Assembly (NCBI GenBank): GCA_963841915.1
Contig: CAWJEN010000006.1
Location: 1,504,001 to 1,568,000 of the forward strand
From: an uncultured Planctomycetota bacterium
GTDB lineage: Bacteria; Planctomycetota; Phycisphaerae; Tepidisphaerales; Tepidisphaeraceae
Reading direction: 5' to 3'
DNA length: 64,000 nucleotides
How positions within the stretch are numbered: position 1 is the first letter of the stretch; every line of letters starts with the position of its first letter. The notes under the pieces are model-generated. The model was not told the DNA's origin, searched no databases, and saw nothing but the letters and a program-made list of their open reading frames with translations. Shown here in pieces: positions 31,645 through 47,535 of this stretch. A program made the position numbers and the translations under genes.

Positions 31645-32913
31645 ATGCCGGTATACGTCTACGAAGCGATGAGCCCCAGCGGCTCGGAGGTCAAGGAAGA
31701 ACTCGAAGCCGCAAGCAACGCGGAAGCGATTGCAAAGATTCGCGCAAAAGGCTATTTCCCGACCAAGATCAAGGAAAAGCAGGCCAAGAAGGCCGTCAAG
31801 AAGGGCAAGGGTGGCAAGGAGCCTGAGCTCCAGCCGCTGTCGCCGAAGAGGAAACTGCCGCTGTCGATCGGCGGTGTGCCGCGCAAGCAGCTCGTCAACT
31901 TCACCCGCCAGCTCTCGACGCTTCAGGATGCGGGCCTGCCGATTCTGCGGTCGTTGCAGATCCTGGAACAACAGCAAAAACCCGGCCTCCTCAAGGCCGT
32001 CATCGGTGGCGTGGCCGACGAAGTCGAGAGTGGTTCGTCGCTCTCAGAGGCGATGGCCAACTATCCCAAGGCCTTCGACAAGCTGTACGTCAACATGATC
32101 AACGCCGGTGAGGCCGGCGGTGTGCTCGACATCATCCTGGCCCGCCTGGCCGACTTCATGGAGAAGGCCGCCCGGCTCAAGAAGAAGGTCATCGGTGCGA
32201 TGATCTACCCGGCGGCGGTTATTACCATCGCCGTCGCGATCGTGACGGGCATCATGATCTTCGTGATCCCGGCGTTCAAGGACATCTTCAACGACTTCGG
32301 CGTGGAACTGCCCGCCGCGACACAGTTCCTGATCTCCACCGCCGACTTCCTGGCACCGCCCAACAACGGCTGGATCTACATCGTCCTGTCGCCCGTCGCG
32401 TTCCTGCTCTTCTGGAAGCTCGTCCGCATGAGCAAGGGCGGTCGCTACGCCACCGACCTGTTCAAGCTCAAGATTCCGATCCTGGGCCAGATCGTCGGCA
32501 AGGGCACCATCGCCCGTTTCACCCGGACGCTCGGCACGCTCATCAGCGCCGGCGTGCCCATCCTCGACGCCATCAACATCACCAAAGAGACGTGCGGCAA
32601 CGAGGTCTTCGAGCGGGCACTCGTCAAGGTCCACGACGCGATCCGTGAAGGTGAATCCATGGCCGATCCGCTGCGGGCGACCCGCATCGTCGACACGATC
32701 GTCGTCAACATGGTCGACGTCGGCGAAGAGACCGGCGACCTCGACAAGATGCTCGTGAAGGTGGCCGACAACTACGACAACGACGTCGACGTGCTGGTCA
32801 GCTCGCTCGTGAGCATCCTGGAGCCGGTGATGGTTGTGGTGCTGGGTGCGATTGTCGGCTTCATCGTCGTGGCCTTGTTCATGCCGATGATTTCGCTGGT
32901 CCAGTCGCTGTAA
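31645..32913 (+). CDS. pilC: Type IV pilus/T2SS inner-membrane platform protein (PilC/GspF)
   Basis: FTRQLSTLQDAGLPILRSL, AGEAGGVLD, AMIYPA, VGEETGDLDKML, ILEPVMVV. Confidence 0.95.
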   Translation: MPVYVYEAMSPSGSEVKEELEAASNAEAIAKIRAKGYFPTKIKEKQAKKAVKKGKGGKEPELQPLSPKRKLPLSIGGVPRKQLVNFTRQLSTLQDAGLPILRSLQILEQQQKPGLLKAVIGGVADEVESGSSLSEAMANYPKAFDKLYVNMINAGEAGGVLDIILARLADFMEKAARLKKKVIGAMIYPAAVITIAVAIVTGIMIFVIPAFKDIFNDFGVELPAATQFLISTADFLAPPNNGWIYIVLSPVAFLLFWKLVRMSKGGRYATDLFKLKIPILGQIVGKGTIARFTRTLGTLISAGVPILDAINITKETCGNEVFERALVKVHDAIREGESMADPLRATRIVDTIVVNMVDVGEETGDLDKMLVKVADNYDNDVDVLVSSLVSILEPVMVVVLGAIVGFIVVALFMPMISLVQSL

Positions 32914-39312: not shown

Positions 39313-39484
39313 ATTCGTTAAGCCGGATAACGTCGAACGCCTCGGAGGGCAGAGTGGCCAAGGCGCTTGAGTGCATCGGTCCGGTGTGCTGTTCCGCGAC
39401 GGGTTGCGTCCTGCTCGCCTCAAACCACTGAAGTGGCATGGCCGGGGGTTTCCCGCCGTCGCCGGACGTTGCGAAGAGTGGGGC

Positions 39485-41407
39485 GTGACCCGCCTGCCTC
39501 TTCGATCCCGCCGTGCCGTCGGCATGAGCCGCGGCTTTACGCTGACGGAGCTGATGATCAGCGTTGTCCTCGTGCTGGTGCTGACGCTGGCAATCGCGTT
39601 GATTTTCGACACGACCAGCCGCGTGATCTCCAAGGCGACAGCCGTCCAGGTCGCCACCCGGAATCTCGACGCCGTCCGCACGACGTTGGCCCAGGATTTC
39701 ACCGGCAACGACGGGATCGACAGCGACATCTTCGTCGACACCGCCGGAGTCCTGCCGCTGAGTGAGCAGGCGATGATCGTGCTCAGCAGCGGCTACACCG
39801 CGACATGGCGAAACGAAGAAGACGCTGACAGCGACCTCAACGATTGGAGACTCATTTCAGACACCGGCACCATTGGCGATTGGATTGATGCGGCGCTGAG
39901 TGCAGATGTAGCCGGCGACGGAACGGAAGTAACCATCAATCCGCTCGCTTTCGGGTTGAGGTCGTTTCGCGTCGATCAATTCTCAATGTTTGCCAGCGGT
40001 GGCTTCGAGAGCGAGGTTGCGGTCGGAGCGGCAACGCCTTACCAAGCGGACAACGCACTGATTTATTACGGTCACCTGCGCGTGTTCAACAATGACTATG
40101 GCCAGGCTGCTGGCCTGCAGGATCCTGCTGCTTTCGGCGTTCCGGGTGTTCCTTACGCAGGCAATCCGGGCGGGACCGTCGGGCAGGAAAACGTAAACAA
40201 TCGCTTTGCCGACCAGTTCATGCTGGGCCGTGTGGCATTGCTTGCAGCGGCTCCCAATGCGTCTGATCCGACCGCGAGCGCAGATCTGTACGACCAAGAC
40301 TACTACACCTCGCCGGACGGCACGGCGTATCCGTTCGTGCGGCGGAACTGGAACTTCGTTCGAGAGAACAACCGAGCCTTCGGACCGCTTGCCAGCACGT
40401 CGCCGGTTCGCATCTATGACGGCACCTCGCTCGTCCCCGTGGTCGATGTCAACAGCACCAACATCGCCCTTCAGGCGGGAGTTGCAGACATCTTGGGCGC
40501 GTCCGTCTCGGAACTCCGCGAACGTTTCGACTTCATCATCGAGACCGACCCGATGGTGACCGGCGAAACAACGAAGCAGTATCCGTATACCACCGGTGAT
40601 GGAGGATTCGATCGTCTTCCGCGAGGCGGCGGCGCGAGCCAAGGCGGCAATACAGGCGGCGACTATTTCTCCTCGTGGTTCTGGAATGATGTGAACCGGT
40701 TTTGGATCAACCCGTTCGGCCAACAGCCGTCGACGGCACAAGGCGACGCACAGCGGTCACAGCTTCTTCTGCCCGGAGCGAGCAACTTCATTGTTGAATA
40801 TGCCGGCGACTACTTCGAGCAGAACCCGCTGACCGGGGAGATTGCCGACCAGGACGGCGACGGCGTTTTCGTCGGCCCCGACGGCGTGATTGACTTTATC
40901 GTGACGCCCTCCAACGCACGGGTCATCCGCTTCTATGGCTTCCCTCGTGACGTCGACGGGAACGGCTTCGCCGAGCTGTACTTTGATGGAATGATCACAA
41001 TGCCCGGAGCTTACACGTCGACCGACGTCTTGCCGTTAAAGGACATGGTCGGATTCACCGGCGTCACGCTCGGCGTGACAGAGTTCGGTGCACCGCTCAT
41101 CTTCCCGCACGAGAAGCGGGTCCCGATCGACGGACGTCTCGCAACGTACGGCGACTCGTTCGCGACAACCCCCGCGCCGTACGTGACGACCGGCCAGCCT
41201 TACCTGTGCGCGTGGTCGCCTGCGGAGATCAACGGCAAGATCCAATTCGACGGTTTCTCCGGCGGCGCTGCGGGCACACCGGACGTCTCCTTCGACTTCC
41301 CCCTCGGCCCAAAGCTCATCCGCTTCGTCGTCACCGCCACCGATCCCGAAGGGCGGCTCGAGACGCCGATCACCTCAGAGTTCGTCTTCGAGATCCCGGA
41401 CAACTAG
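39485..41407 (+). CDS. Minor pilin, PilW/GspJ-like (~640 aa)
   Basis: RGFTLTELMISVVLVL...IALIF; FIVEYAGDY; C-terminal PKLIRFVVTATDPEGRLE...EFVF. Confidence 0.82.
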   Translation: MTRLPLRSRRAVGMSRGFTLTELMISVVLVLVLTLAIALIFDTTSRVISKATAVQVATRNLDAVRTTLAQDFTGNDGIDSDIFVDTAGVLPLSEQAMIVLSSGYTATWRNEEDADSDLNDWRLISDTGTIGDWIDAALSADVAGDGTEVTINPLAFGLRSFRVDQFSMFASGGFESEVAVGAATPYQADNALIYYGHLRVFNNDYGQAAGLQDPAAFGVPGVPYAGNPGGTVGQENVNNRFADQFMLGRVALLAAAPNASDPTASADLYDQDYYTSPDGTAYPFVRRNWNFVRENNRAFGPLASTSPVRIYDGTSLVPVVDVNSTNIALQAGVADILGASVSELRERFDFIIETDPMVTGETTKQYPYTTGDGGFDRLPRGGGASQGGNTGGDYFSSWFWNDVNRFWINPFGQQPSTAQGDAQRSQLLLPGASNFIVEYAGDYFEQNPLTGEIADQDGDGVFVGPDGVIDFIVTPSNARVIRFYGFPRDVDGNGFAELYFDGMITMPGAYTSTDVLPLKDMVGFTGVTLGVTEFGAPLIFPHEKRVPIDGRLATYGDSFATTPAPYVTTGQPYLCAWSPAEINGKIQFDGFSGGAAGTPDVSFDFPLGPKLIRFVVTATDPEGRLETPITSEFVFEIPDN

Positions 41408-41654
41408 TCGTCGCGCGGCGGCAAACGGCGGCTCATGGTATTGACTCGTCAGCATCCGCTTAGGCTGCCTGATCGCATTAGGGGACAGCCGCTGCGGAGC
41501 CGGGCATAGCGGCAGTGCCGGCGACGTCGAGTCGGCCTCATGAGTCGGGTGTGGCTTCGCGACACGTCGTGCAAGACGATGATGTCGCAGGCGGTATGGC
41601 GCACTGACTTTGCATTGCCCACTGGTTCATGGCGGCAATGCCATTGAGGCGCGG

Positions 41655-41885
41655 GCGGAGCCGAACGCTGCTACTTCGGTGCCGATCCATCTGCCTTCGG
41701 TTCCGAGTCCATGTCGGGCGGCTCCTCAGTGGCACGGAGCGGAACCGGCGGTTCAGGCTGCGGCATCGAGAGACTCCCGCTTGATGCCGCAACCGTTCAT
41801 GTCGGTGCCGACGCCGCCTTGGTTTGTGTCGACGCGGCCGTGCTCGGTGCCGCGGCGGGTCGTTGCGGAGCCGGCGACGGGCGAT
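41655..41885. repeat. Degenerate tandem array with 21-bp period: 9-nt motif plus 12-nt unique spacer, 11 units
   Basis: Motif starts at 41655, 41676, 41697, 41718, 41739, 41760, 41781, 41802, 41823, 41844, 41865 (gcggagccg, tcggtgccg, tcggttccg, gcggctcct, gcggaaccg, gcggcatcg, ttgatgccg, tcggtgccg, tttgtgtcg, tcggtgccg, gcggagccg). Confidence 0.85.
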
Positions 41886-42075
41886 AACGCGGAGACTGTG
41901 AGGTCGAACCTTCACCGCGACCGATGTCTGAGCAGCCGCAGGGCAGATCGAGACCTTTGCCGAGCGGGGGTAGTGCTCGTCCCGGCCGCGTCAGCCGACG
42001 CCCGCAGCGGCGTCGAGCAGTTGCCGCTCGTTCGCGTCCTGCTTCCTTGCGTCCACCATCCCTAAACGGTTCATT

Positions 42076-42786
42076 ATGGCCGATGACTACCTGCCACGTC
42101 GGGAACTCTTGTTGAAAGCGTGGGCGATCAACTTTCGCAACACGATTTCGCAGTCGTATGTGTCGCTGGGTCTGACGACCGACGATGCGACACAGCTTCG
42201 CGAGCGGGTCGACGCGTTCGTCGCGGCCCTACTTGTGTCCGGTCAGCCTTCGACGCGGACAACTGTGACCGTTGCGGACAAGCGAGATGCGTCTGCTGCT
42301 ATGCGGGACCTGATCCGACGGCTGGTTCGACGCATTCAGAGCCTTCCCCATCTGACGAACGTGGAGCGGGAGAAGCTCGGGATCACGCTCCCGCACAAGC
42401 CGAAGCGGGTCGCGTCTCACAGCTCCAAGCCGCCGCTGGAGGTGCCGTTCGTGCACCTTGCGGCGATTCGGGACAGGCAGCTTCAGGTTCAGCTCGTCGG
42501 TGACAACGGCACCGGCCGCAAGCCAGACGGCGTCATCGGAGCCGTCTTGTACTGGAAGCTCGACGGCCAGATCAATGCGCCGTGGCATATGAGCGAGCTG
42601 ACGTCGCAGCGGACGGTCGTCATGGAGGTGCCTCAAAGCGTTCCCGGCGGCAGCGGCGTTTGGATCTCGGCCTGCTGGCTTAATCGCCGTCTCGAACGCG
42701 GACCGGCCGCAAGACCGGAACTGGCGTTCGTCAGTGACCCGCACTACGCGTCGCCTGCCTCGACCATGCCGCAGTTGGCTGCGTGA
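42076..42786 (+). CDS. Uncharacterised protein: helical N-terminal domain plus predicted FnIII/Ig-like beta-sandwich
   Basis: DYLP...W..NF...LGLT...PSTRT...K..A...IR...IQ...LGIT, then KPDGVIG and W...WLNRRLERGP. I recognise this pattern from hypothetical proteins of Phycisphaerae; the fold is inferred. Confidence 0.75.
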   Translation: MADDYLPRRELLLKAWAINFRNTISQSYVSLGLTTDDATQLRERVDAFVAALLVSGQPSTRTTVTVADKRDASAAMRDLIRRLVRRIQSLPHLTNVEREKLGITLPHKPKRVASHSSKPPLEVPFVHLAAIRDRQLQVQLVGDNGTGRKPDGVIGAVLYWKLDGQINAPWHMSELTSQRTVVMEVPQSVPGGSGVWISACWLNRRLERGPAARPELAFVSDPHYASPASTMPQLAA

Positions 42787-42840
42787 CGCGGGTGGTCGAT
42801 CGGTTTCCGCAGCCGATCGGACAGAGCGAAGAGTGCGGGC

Positions 42841-45800
42841 GTGAAGAACCGCTTTTCAGAAGGTCACAACCGGTCCGTCCGCCGCGGGTCGGCTCTGGTG
42901 GTGCAGACCCGCCGCCTGGGGCGATCGGGTGGTAGAAGGCGGCGAGGCGTGGTGCTGTTGTTCGTGGTGGTTTTGCTGACCTTGCTGGCGATCGTCGCCA
43001 GTGCGTTCCTGATCAGCACACGGTTGGCGAGTGGCCAAAGCGGCGTCGACGCGCGTGGCGGTCAGGTGTTCCAGGACGGCGTCGACGCCGAGGGCCAGAT
43101 CGTCGCGGTACGGGACCGGGCGATTGAGCAGCGTGCAGTTGCAAATCGCGTTGGATGTCTTCGAGACGGTCCGGGATAATCCAGCTGGCAACACCACGGC
43201 CGCCCGCACGATCGACTTCGCCAATGATCTTGCTGTGGCGGCCGACGCGTGCGACGGCCAACACGGGCTTTTACGGCAACAACAACGTTCCACCCAACCC
43301 CGCTGCGGCCGCAGGACCTGAACGTTTTGCGCCGATGCAGACGTACGTTGCTGTGGCTTATCCCGGCACCACGTTTCCGGCGCGGGAAACGCTGTCAACG
43401 CCGCGGCGGCGGTCGATGGGCGAGCGACTGGTTACCCCAACGGCGACCCGGCCTACGCCACGCCGGCGACGGCGTTGCGGTCTCCGTATTTTCCGCTCGA
43501 CGCACTTGGCGACACCGACCCGCACCTGGCCTCGGCCCGTCCAACGCCGACGGCCGGCATCGAGTTCGACGGTGCCACGCTCACGTTGCCCGGCGACTTG
43601 ACGGGCGACTACCTGTGGGAGCGGATCTCCGCTCCACCCGTCGGGCTGCCGGGGCTGAGCGATCGACAACGTTTTCGTCAATCCATTTGCGGCAGGCAGC
43701 TTTGCCGACCTCGACACAGCGGCGGATCGGCTGCTCTTGACGGAGCGATGCCGACGGTCATCCGGCAGTCTACCGGCGACGCCTTTGTCGAGTATGAGGG
43801 TGATGCCGCGGCCGAGTACGTCAACGACCGTATCCGCGTTTTCCCGGCTTGTTGTACGACGCTCGACGGCGGGCAACGCCTGCGAACGTCGATCCGGCAC
43901 CGTCAGGTGCCGACCTGATCTCTGCCCGCCGGTGACGCCGACGGTGACGGCGTCGCCGACGCGGGGCTTGTCCCGATCGTCTTCAATGAAAACGCATCCG
44001 TCGGCAACCCCAACCGCTACCTCGATCCGGCGACGAATCTGAGCTACACGCTCAGCTACCGTGTCGTCGACAACAACGCCAGCGTCAACGTCAACACAGC
44101 TCTGACGAGTCAGGGTGATTTGGCGATCCCGGCTGGCGTCGGCGCTGGCGTTGACGTGACGACGAATACCCTCGCCACACCGCAGACGCTCTACGAAGGG
44201 TTTGCCGGTCCGAATCGAGGCATCTGGCCGAGCAACGTCGGCGCCTATCAGTTGCAGCCGTTCCGGATCGGCGGGACGACGCTTGCCGACGATCAGTTCG
44301 GCGGCACGGCCGGTGAAGAACTCGGTGCTGACCAGATGGCTGACATCATGACCGAGCTGACCGGCGTCACCGCAAGTCAGCTCGACGACGACTCGCTCGC
44401 CGAGGTGCTTCTGCGCTTCAGGTGCGCCGGCTGCCACTCCCGATGTTGAGACAGCGACTGTGGGTGAACTGCTGGGGCTTGGCCTGACGACGCGACTCGG
44501 CCATCCCGCTCCTTTGTCGAGCGACGAGAATCCGACAATCAACGACCGGCGCTACGACGTTGGACGTCCATTTACCGACGCAGGTGCGACCAGAATCGCT
44601 GCTTCATCGTGGCGGCGGATACATTGATCAGTCGGCCGACAAGTCGCGGCTTGAGCGAGTTGCCAGCGACTCGCTGTGGATCGGCGCGGGGAACTACGTT
44701 GCCAACCCGCAGTTGAGCTTCGGTTCGTTCGTGCTGAATGATCCGATGGGAGTTGCCGCAACGGAGCAGCAGCGTCGGGCGTTATGGGCCGAGATGTTCA
44801 TGACGGCCGACCCAGACAACGCAGACTACGTCTACGACCGCGCCGACGCTGCTGGGTGGCGGCATCAGCTGTGCCGCTACCCGATCAGTCCGCGGAGCGG
44901 TCTCGTCGCCGAGAACGGCGTGAGCATGGCGTTCAGCCCGCTGCTGCTGGACCCGGCGGCGGCGTTCACGCACGGCGAGGCAAGGTGTCCGGCCGGCATG
45001 CCGCCGTACGCGTTGACGGCCGCTGATCCGCAGATTGCGACGGTGCGTCCGCCGGTAAAGGCGGGCCTGAACTCCGGCCGGCTTCGGCGAGTTGTGGCGT
45101 GCGTACTGGAACATCATGGCCGACCCGTCGGGCCCGGTCGCTGCCGCCGACTTTGCAGTGCCCGGCGACATCGACGACGCGACGACCCCCAACCCGAATG
45201 CGGAGTTCGAGCCGAATGTTCTTGTGACCGGCCTGCCAGCGATGATGAGCGACGAGCAACTGCTCCTGCTCCGCGCCGCCATCGCGGCGGTCAACACGAT
45301 GGACATTCGTGATCTCGAGCAAGCGATGGATATGGACGGCGCGTCGATGTCGACTTGGACAACGGCGATGCGACGATCGACGTCCGCCGCAGAATGGCGA
45401 TGCGGACATTACCGTGGCAGAGATCGATCTCGGCACTTTCGGCGGCGGGCACCGCTCAAGGCCCGCGTCTACGGCACCGAGGCTCAGCCGTTCATCGCGG
45501 AGTACGTCGTCGACTTCGACGTGCTCGGCACGGCGGTCGAGTACTGCGGCGGTCGAGCTGTTGAACCCGTACCCGTTCCCGATCAGATGGAGGCTGGTAC
45601 TCGTGGCGACCGATTCCGGCGGCGGGTGGAGATCCCGTATTTTTGCCGACTCTCGAGCGAGCAACCAACGGCCGGTCGCAGACACTCGATTGTCATGCCT
45701 GCGGCAACGGGCGGTACGATGGTGGAACGCTTGTCGTGACAAGCAGTGCGGCGCCGATCCTGCCGGTGTGACGCCGCCCGTCGCGTGATGTCGATGAGGC

Positions 45801-47535
45801 CGGGACGTCGACGGAGCGCCGACTGCGACCGCCGCGATGGACACTGCGACGTCGCGGTGATTGCCTCGCCCGCGGCGGCTGCCGGGTTCTTCGGTGAGGC
45901 GGTCTGTGCCATCGGCCGGCCAATGCGGCCGCTCCGCTCGCCCGAAGACCTGGTACCACTCGACATGGTCGACATCACAGGTACGGTGCCGGCTGAGCGA
46001 CGCCACCGGTTCCGCTATGCCCGCGATGATTCGCACGCGGTGGCAACGACGCCTCGCGGGACTGGAACGTTCAGTCTTCGTGGCGGATTACGACGCAGCG
46101 GCTGCCGGTCGTCGCACTTGATCCCGATACGACGCCGGTGCTCGACCAACTTCAGTGGTCACCCGAGTCGATCCCGCAAATCCGCATGCCAGGCGACAGC
46201 GGTTGACGCGGTGACCGATCTTGGTGCTCCGAATACGACTTCATGACGCCGCTTTCCCACGGCGGACTTCCCGTCGGTCCCGTGCTTCCGGGCCAATTGC
46301 CGCAACTGGTGCAACTGCTCCAACGTGGCCGTACGGCGGCTTTGCCCGGGCGGCGATGCGCTGACCGTGCCGATCGTCGGCAGCTACAGTTGTCACCAGT
46401 GCCGGTGGCTTCAGCTGGCTGTTCGGCCGGTCAGATCAACGCCATCTCGGACCAGCAGACGTCGAAACGGCTCAGCCAGGTGGAGACGGTGTGACTAAGG
46501 CGCAAGACTGCCTCTCGCTTTCGATGAGACAGGTGTGCCCGTCTACGACTGGGCCGCGGACGCGCTGAATTACCTCACGGCCCTCGACAACTTCGGCGAC
46601 GACACGTTCCCGAATGCAGACCTGCGCTTTGCCGGGATCGACTACACACTCGACACGATGGATACGACGCCCGGCTTCGGAGCGGACGACGGACTGCCGG
46701 ACGCGTTCCTGACGCAGTTCAACAGTGCCGCCTCGCCGTTCTTGCTGACGCCGTCTTTCGCGACGCCGGTGGGTGGCACCGACACGACGGTCCTTGGTCC
46801 GATCGATAACGACGGCAACGGCCGATACGGGCTGAGTGTGCCGCAGGTCTTCGGCTCGCTTGCCACCGACTTGGAGGCTGTGACCGAGCGGTATCGCGAG
46901 GCGTTCCTGCCGGCCCAGGGCAAGATCAACCTGCTCGACCACGGGTGCCGGCATTCTCAAGACGTTGCCGCTCGTCTCCTCAGCAGCCGGTGGCGTTGAC
47001 GCGACAAACGCCGTCGCGGCTGACGCATTCGTTCTGAATGTGTTCGACGCCGGATTGGATACCGACGCCAGCGGCACGATCGATGTCGGTGAGGCGCTGG
47101 TGGGCTTGTCTTCGTTGTCACCGTTCTACATCGCCAACAGCGTCACGACGGCGACCAACAGCGGCGACCTGAGTGGCCTGATCGCCGGGTACAACACGGC
47201 TGGTGTTGATGCCGACGCGACCGACTACTACGACGTGACCGACGGCACTGCCGGCGATGTCGATGCCGCCATTGTCGACGTCGCCCGCCTCAGCAACCTC
47301 ACCACGCTCCAGAGCGACAGCTACACCGTCTACCTCATCGTTCAGGCGTGGGACGGCTTCGGCACGCCTCAGGCTCGTATCGTCAATCAGGAGCGTGTCG
47401 CATTCATCGTCGATCGCAGCGGCATCTATCCGGCAGGGCACGGGATTCCCGGGCTGCCGGGCGAAGTCGGTTATGCCGACGCCGATGAGTTGCTCGACGC
47501 GCTCGAAGATCACGCCGATCACGCCGGGTAACTGA
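42841..47535 (+). pseudogene. Giant PilX/GspK-like minor pilin or adhesin (~1500 aa) broken by about 10 or more frameshifts
   Basis: N-terminus RRRRGVVLLFVVVLLTLLAIVASAF; internal GDADGDGVAD and RVVDNNASVNVNTA; C-terminus LSNLTTLQSDSYTVYLIVQAW...AFIVDRS. Protein-like segments alternate between frames. Confidence 0.78.

Follow-up and report, generated by a model that had tools for sequence, protein, structure and literature searches.

A recurring array of 21-bp dyad units beside an unnamed multicopy gene family in Planctomycetota

An insert in a pilin cluster carries a phased array and a 236-aa gene

The window (the whole 64,000-nucleotide stretch of Planctomycetota DNA analysed here, from genome G000) contains an insert with a GC content of 0.61-0.67, located within a pilin cluster on a 1.7-Mb contig. 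Upstream of it lies a pilin-like (PilW/PulJ-like) gene of 678 aa (39371-41407, + strand), which we take to be PilW; its N_methyl match (E 3e-4) is weak and narrowly misses the cut-off, and orthologues are present in 4/4 congeners. Downstream lies a pilX-like gene (42841-47531, + strand), presumably PilX, which is spread over several reading frames whose pieces match a single 1540-aa open frame in the congener G002. Both flanking genes are outside the module. The broken frames suggest assembly indel errors or decay; several paralogues of the gene family described below are also frame-broken in the source genome. The insert begins with a non-coding left part (41408-41654, no strand assigned), continues with a 21-bp array (41655-41885, no strand assigned) and a candidate promoter (41898-41927, + strand), and closes with a 236-aa gene (42076-42786, + strand). 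As originally predicted, this gene starts 190 nt 3' of the array and has a gene-like GC content by codon position (0.66/0.48/0.77).

The original prediction had envisaged an empty site in relatives, and the pilW-like and pilX-like genes are indeed adjacent in 3/4 congeners (G001, G002 and G003). At this position G004 has a family gene only 26% identical to that of the window, together with a promoter match and an array whose motif is different. Because the site is empty in three congeners and occupied in the fourth, a module must have been gained or lost here. The window and G004 proteins are not sisters in a tree of 43 proteins from G000-G004, although a shared clade was not rejected (AU p 0.153), and no recurring recombinase neighbour was found within 1.5 kb of the family genes. 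Paralogues are found in unrelated surroundings, so that the position within the pilin operon is incidental.

The window array is an old member of its class

The array consists of 11 units with a 9-10 bp dyad core, KCGGWGCCGA, at the exact 21-bp spacing that had been proposed from the letters. Its summed column information is 12.95 bits, compared with 4.97 +/- 0.78 and a maximum of 8.0 among 2000 dinucleotide shuffles, and its lag-21 identity is 0.49, where the best lag of any shuffle reached 0.42; the periodicity is thus significant against these shuffles. The 12-nt stretches between the cores are identical to those first listed, and the CGG-NN-CCG core is perfect in 7/11 units (dyad p 0.003). 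Unit columns 2-4 and 7-9 are almost invariant, columns 11-20 are near random, and conservation is symmetric around the dyad with r 0.88, a value that is partly circular because the axis was chosen from the data. Tandem Repeats Finder, run at score 30, did not detect this array. The in-phase lattice ends abruptly on both left and right, with all in-phase positions of the left part scoring below -10 with the array's own matrix. Degenerate off-phase copies had also been proposed on both sides, and this part of the prediction did not hold: the same matrix gives 9.6 at 41494, 5.6 at 41512, -2.2 at 41612, -4.6 at 41635 and 2.5 at 41889, so that three of the five named sites score below 5, and the number of off-phase sites scoring at least 5 is near chance (five in ~440 flanking positions, with ~3 expected from a window background of 0.7% per position).

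No second phased array with the window motif was found in the genome, where the window array scores 61.7 and the next best stretch 28.2. The mean unit identity of the window array is 0.44, and the 5th percentile of 84 homologous arrays is 0.50. It is an old, degenerate member of the class, among the most decayed, in which the dyad core was retained and the remainder decayed. Its 12-nt 'spacers' resemble what decay would leave between the cores of an ageing tandem array. When the whole window was scanned, positions 32073-32800 showed a codon-type periodicity (12, 15 and 18 nt) stronger than that of the array; this is probably a low-complexity coding stretch.

The gene belongs to a patchily distributed family with a predicted bundle-FN3 fold

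The 236-aa protein belongs to an unnamed family with 1646 cluster representatives at E <= 0.001. This number comes from a full HMMER scan, which we used to define the family; a word-index search returned the query alone and a profile search returned five proteins. Pfam, NCBIfam and PHROGs gave no family common to more than 3/130 members. Homologues in Planctomycetota fall in Phycisphaerales, Tepidisphaerales and Pirellulaceae, and Atlas clusters come from Planctomycetota and Bacteroidota; the DNA-level locus analysis covered Planctomycetota. The source genome has 15 family matches, and up to 22 occur in one genome. Family members are present in 26/61 related genomes, with 1-20 matches each, and in 10/251 genomes across the phylum. 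The family is therefore both multicopy and patchily distributed. Searches of plasmids and phages with two queries each, and two scans of viral contigs with close relatives, found no family match.

AlphaFold2, run with 130 sequences, predicted the structure with a pLDDT of 91.8, placing helices at residues 10-101 and a beta sandwich at residues 125-218. The second half (42421-42741, + strand, residues 116-222), which includes an RRxKP loop, is predicted to adopt a fibronectin type III (FN3) fold: the model forms a seven-stranded beta sandwich of ~95 residues and superimposes on 4yfd_A with Z 13.2 and rmsd 1.8 over 94 aligned residues (Foldseek E 7e-6). In a neighbouring Atlas cluster, 18% of members carry PF00041. 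The N-terminal half (42103-42378, + strand, residues 10-101) is modelled as a helical bundle, for which Foldseek found no match at E <= 0.001 and VIA-align returned generic bundles only, the best with Z 9.7 and rmsd 4.0 over 95 aligned residues. Nop, winged-helix or HTH entries were not prominent among these matches. The homodimer prediction scored 0.23 against a mark of 0.42 and was counted for neither side. Lysine or arginine occupies positions 61, 69, 73, 81 and 98 of the bundle in 88-97% of 130 rows and positions 147, 149, 178 and 205 in 81-92%, and the family has a median net charge of +7.5. The window protein itself has S, G and Q at the basic consensus positions 73, 147 and 178.

Arrays of the same period lie upstream of homologous genes

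The original prediction treated array and gene as one module. The gene was located in 125 of 138 loci, and 111 of these had an almost complete start as well as no less than 500 nt of upstream sequence. Of the 111, 60 reached a lag-21 identity of 0.55 or higher upstream of the gene; the figure was 2 for the downstream side and 0 for the gene itself. The genomes compared are related and the locus counts are not independent. The upstream linkage stood; it is not an obligatory one, as 56/142 loci carry no array. In the census of these 142 loci, 82 arrays have a period of 21, two of 20 (L034 and L060), one of 20.5 (L046, a 20+21 array) and one of 24, so that the period is 20-21 in 85/86 periodic loci; the position relative to the gene is unchanged in the arrays of period 20 and 20+21. 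An apparent period of 32 at L040 was rejected, since it stems from a separate repeat farther upstream and the gene-proximal array has a period of 21. Arrays comprise 6-15 units. The period recurs in the homologues' flanks as had been expected, whereas the motif differs at each locus and many arrays have no variable spacers.

A second subfamily gives the same picture. Of its 17 metagenome loci, three were too short, and 12/14 usable ones carry an array; the two that failed reach 0.53 at lag 21 and 0.63 at lag 42. Two of three loci in named genomes also pass. These arrays stop immediately 5' of the start codon.

Within the source genome, 7/14 family positions have an array, each with a distinct motif. 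A genome-wide scan returned 36 stretches at period 21, 1-2 at each of 19, 20, 22 and 23, and 5-9 at 18 and 24; several of the period-21 matches are coding, and the window array itself failed the filter. Five of the 36 stretches lie within 1.3 kb of a family gene. Arrays were also found away from any family gene, beside a GNAT gene or a gene remnant. Of the orphan non-coding arrays inspected, three precede a GNAT gene. Another three (C5:867150, C6:1572326 and C5:10740) are followed by a short remnant with a KLAA or RIAA ending, and in two of these a strong promoter match lies between array and remnant. We read the orphan arrays as decayed modules, of which those with a remnant have probably lost most of the gene.

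A GNAT gene was also the only frequent neighbour within 1.5 kb of the family gene, lying 3' of it in 26/148 loci. This multicopy GNAT-family gene (Acetyltransf_7/1, phrog_1249) occurs in the source genome at C5:1125661 (+), C6:31616 (-), C6:1303942 (-), C5:261243, C6:142743 and C5:223815, and also at L032:2220-3362. Six of the seven distinct copies in the source genome adjoin an array or a family gene; the seventh, C5:1138867, fell outside the check.

A promoter-like motif and an Ala-Ala tail accompany many family genes

Between array and gene, family loci share the motif YTSAAG-N15-GCCGATR. At a score of at least 12 it was found in 60/99 loci of the training set, compared with 0/99 on the reverse strand and 10/99 inside the gene. 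In a held-out test it was present in 24/49 loci, against 1/49 on the reverse strand and 1/46 farther upstream, and a fixed promoter pattern gave 21/99 versus 1/99. The accessible text of PMC12784957 gives the sigma-28 elements as TCTAAAG and GCCGATAA. The family motif has a TAAAG-like -35 element and a GCCGATAA-like -10 element at matching spacing, so that, as far as the motif can tell, it resembles a sigma-28-type promoter. The window copy, GTGAGG-N16-ACCGATGT, which lies 12 nt 3' of the array, is a weak match: it scores 6.9, and a threshold of 10 was attained by 76/99 family loci. The source genome encodes a FliA/WhiG sigma above cut-off, and the motif also occurs 5' of a chemoreceptor gene; a second gene checked had no Pfam match. 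The promoter was found in 38/46 loci without an array and 38/53 with one, and the array-promoter distance ranged from -26 to 857 nt around a median of ~123 (n=38). No sigma-70 promoter was found, and the single terminator match was at chance level.

At the other end of the gene, a C-terminal Ala-Ala tail (42778-42783, + strand) is a candidate ClpXP degradation signal. The ending occurs in 124/152 stored homologues and 97/111 locus proteins, compared with 108/1803 long ORFs of the source genome. According to the accessible text of PMC7142297, a C-terminal Ala-Ala is a known ClpXP signal, and judging by this ending the family protein is probably short-lived. The second subfamily has the tail in 0/9 proteins. 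Because that subfamily is tail-less and its arrays abut the start codon, we regard promoter and tail as features of a lineage, and array and gene as the core.

The arrays behave as double-stranded DNA

Three readings of the array had been put forward from its letters: a phased protein-binding lattice, a small-RNA array of constant repeats and variable spacers, and a heptad-repeat coding sequence. Dyad symmetry is significant (p <= 0.05) in 54/84 arrays (40/64 in a smaller set), where ~5% would be expected; 30/84 have no significant dyad. Conservation is symmetric around the dyad, with r 0.31 compared with 0.01 around other axes, a comparison that is partly circular because the axis was chosen from the data. 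In 40 significant arrays, mismatches of the G.T kind (334) and the A.C kind (318) are about equally frequent, and the folding excess is -11.6 versus -11.2 kcal/mol on the two strands (p 0.83). The arrays fold more stably than column-permuted versions in 69/84 cases, and this excess is independent of unit order (p 0.44). Selection for long hairpins was ruled out in general by the unit-order shuffles. At two loci, L116 and L137, unit order does affect folding, by about -8 to -9 kcal/mol, and at L116 the two dyad halves are divided between the 5' units and the 3' units, in the manner of a long hairpin; other arrays do not generally behave in this way.

In many homologous arrays the units are almost perfect tandem copies with no variable part, and the class as a whole is therefore not characterised by variable spacers. 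Neighbouring units are more similar than distant ones (0.69 versus 0.63). The motifs change quickly: among pairs of proteins less than 60% identical, none has a common motif (0/3471, at similarity > 0.65 among 84 arrays), at 60-80% identity the motif is common in 4/14 pairs, and proteins 65-74% identical can have unrelated motifs. Taken together, the occurrence of periods other than 21 (20 and 20.5), the equivalence of the two strands and the arrays that have no spacers favour a lattice of double-stranded DNA over a guide RNA or a peptide. The protein-binding lattice is the best reading of the three.

A proposed mechanism and its rivals

Computation shows that the arrays are tied to the gene, have a period of 20-21 bp and dyad symmetry, and favour neither strand; it also shows the promoter motif, the Ala-Ala tail, the predicted fold and the conserved basic positions. 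From these we infer protein binding, the identity of the binder and an effect on transcription. On balance we lean towards a one-faced dyad lattice coated by an oligomeric reader, likely the family protein, which tunes a sigma-28 promoter and is cleared by proteolysis. The insert would then be a self-contained expression unit of lattice, sigma-28-type promoter and gene. The array would work as double-stranded DNA offering 6-15 dyad sites, one per two helical turns, and because the pitch equals two helical turns all sites would lie on one face of the helix. An oligomeric protein could coat this lattice cooperatively and either set the activity of the adjacent promoter or be stored there. The likeliest reader would be the encoded bundle-FN3 protein or a paralogue, whose conserved basic residues would grip the DNA backbone, and Clp proteolysis may clear it by way of the Ala-Ala tail. 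Selection would hold spacing and symmetry, and repeat expansion and homogenisation would renew the letters, which is why each locus could come to have its own motif.

Motifs that evolve faster than the protein are hard to reconcile with a strict cognate lock. Either a few fast-changing residues set the specificity, or the reader senses pitch and symmetry over letters. Against a cognate reader stand the arrays that outlive the gene. Against the mechanism as a whole count the 56/142 loci with no array, the variable distance to the promoter and its equal frequency where no array is present, the arrays with no significant dyad, the tail-less second subfamily, the weak promoter and replaced basic positions of the window copy, and a weak coding-like excess. 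A bolder version, which we put forward only tentatively and think rather unlikely, is that the bundle-FN3 paralogues, at up to ~20 per genome, polymerise on private, re-written lattices and form degradable sigma-28 switches, some of them driving a GNAT partner. To our knowledge there is no precedent for a bacterial DNA reader of Ig/FN3 fold with a quickly re-writable target.

The proposed reader could also be dispensed with. A hairpin-prone tandem repeat with rapid turnover might tune or insulate the promoter through DNA shape or length, or aid the rearrangement and spread of the cassette, and its palindromes would then come from template switching with no dedicated reader; we judge this minisatellite explanation unlikely. 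It would accommodate close proteins with unrelated motifs, arrays that span perfect tandem copies down to 44% identity, the greater likeness of adjacent units, orphan arrays that survive gene loss, and the patchy distribution of the gene over 26 of the 61 related genomes. It would be hard to see, however, why a neutral repeat should hold to 20-21 bp in one place beside one gene family, which 85 of the 86 periodic loci do, or should peak at 21 in the genome scan (36 stretches, several of them coding, against 1-2 at neighbouring periods), and the window array has kept its dyad core despite decay elsewhere.

The heptad reading of the original prediction is distinctly less probable. In it, the majority of arrays would be translated into a small peptide built from 7-residue repeats, either a leader or an antisense product, that acts with the FN3 protein. 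Besides the period of exactly 21 in 82/86 periodic loci, a weak excess of open frames speaks for it: against a dinucleotide-aware null, open frames average 3.54 per array versus 3.26 +/- 0.10, the best synonymous share 0.501 versus 0.479 +/- 0.011, and the a/d hydrophobic pattern is present in 35/84 arrays versus 28.7 +/- 3.5. At L052, 11/12 single changes are synonymous in one frame, and the window array is crossed by two frames, one of 151 codons (41610-42065) and an antisense one of 125 codons. These two frames, however, have a codon GC that is not gene-like (0.72/0.59/0.72 and 0.66/0.65/0.66) and no Pfam match. Arrays of period 20 (L034, L060) and 20+21 (L046), which are not divisible by 3, stand in the equivalent position; variability has no codon-position bias (0.53 versus 0.57 +/- 0.035), neither a peptide nor a strand is common across arrays, and a peptide has no need of DNA palindromy. 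The heptad reading is thus disfavoured.

A transcript cut into 21-nt-based RNAs or folded as dsRNA, with the protein binding guides or decoys, is very improbable: it would fit the stability of the arrays relative to column-permuted ones, the second-subfamily arrays that probably lie within the 5' leader, the hairpin-like L116 and L137, and the 4/11 variable 12-mers that have 7-13 exact genome matches versus 1.6-3.3 when shuffled (a weak control for GC-rich words), but not the absence of G.U bias, strand preference and unit-order dependence, the lack of any motif common to all loci, the variable spacers that are often missing, the main promoter 3' of the array, or the best Rfam score of 20.8 bits, where the gathering score is 40.

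Comparison with known systems

Plasmid iterons, as in P1, F, R6K and RK2, are tandem Rep-initiator sites that recur about every two helical turns, and the units described here likewise repeat about two turns apart beside the gene of the likely binder. They differ in being chromosomal, in having dyad units with a locus-specific motif and up to 22 family matches in a genome, and in the bundle-plus-FN3 protein. Iteron origins use a winged-helix Rep initiator; unlike such an origin, the insert, with its GC-rich composition and its place on a large contig, has no AT-rich unwinding region on a plasmid-type replicon. In parC/ParR and tubC/TubR, centromere repeats are accompanied by a partner NTPase gene in the operon. 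There too the array lies 5' of the gene, and a filament-like coating with autoregulation resembles what we propose, but no recurring NTPase neighbour was found within 1.5 kb at 148 loci, and a chromosome here carries many unrelated copies. LytTR-type direct repeats and NtrC-type enhancers are phased regulator sites at promoters, and share with the present arrays helically phased sites 5' of an alternative-sigma promoter. The arrays differ from them in having 6-15 sites versus 2-3, no common motif, a variable promoter distance and an adjacent gene with no known DNA-binding domain. CRISPR arrays combine near-identical repeats of ~23-55 nt with unique spacers of ~21-72 nt; these also lie beside one small gene in the way seen here, whereas our units have a core of 9-10 nt and a variable part of 11-12 nt that is often absent in homologous arrays.

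In TIGR-Tas, as the accessible text of PMC12045711 has it, units of 36 nt, in which edge and loop repeats alternate and box C/D motifs occur, accompany a Nop-domain protein. The likeness is again an array beside one small gene; measured against that text, the period of 20-21 and a consensus that differs per locus set our arrays apart. The family promoter is similar to sigma-28 promoters in its -35 and -10 elements (TCTAAAG and GCCGATAA in the latter), and the promoter described in the accessible text of PMC12784957 does not include an upstream lattice. By these comparisons the unit lacks the repeat marks of CRISPR and TIGR, the NTPase partner of partition systems and the AT-rich mark of iteron origins, and would seem to work most like phased operator arrays. 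A literature search that left most subscription journals and bioRxiv supplements outside its scope found no description of the module, and a word search of the accessible text of the TIGR survey preprint (10.64898/2026.09.09.750476) gave no match for it. The pairing of array and gene is recurring and apparently undescribed; the novelty lies in the pairing, and the mechanism is a proposal.

The unit is common and multicopy, yet was missed here by Tandem Repeats Finder, Pfam, NCBIfam, PHROGs and Rfam. Its geometric rule, a pitch of 20-21 bp and a dyad, is constant and its letters vary by locus, unlike those of an iteron, a centromere, CRISPR or TIGR. A family protein that did read its lattice would represent a new bacterial DNA-binding fold with dozens of natural protein-site pairs for the study and engineering of specificity. 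If none does, some general factor would have to select two-turn lattices at alternative-sigma promoters.

Additional observations on gene neighbourhoods

In the 43-protein tree, two array-less clades near the G000 proteins p1314 and p1339 are found in 3-4 congeners, mostly on short branches, and many array-bearing copies sit on long branches; truncated contigs confound these labels. Three families of small uncharacterised ORFs occur 3' of the family gene, in 5, 4 and 3 of 148 loci (L027, L056, L060 and others). One of these families ends in MKAA, and they may be further operon members. Contig C2 of the source genome (39.6 kb) repeats part of C6 (1304000-1340200) with different genes between, among them, by eye, restriction-modification-like and nuclease-like ORFs. 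The region would be a variable island or a strain variant, and two family genes that have no array are located in it along with two orphan arrays.
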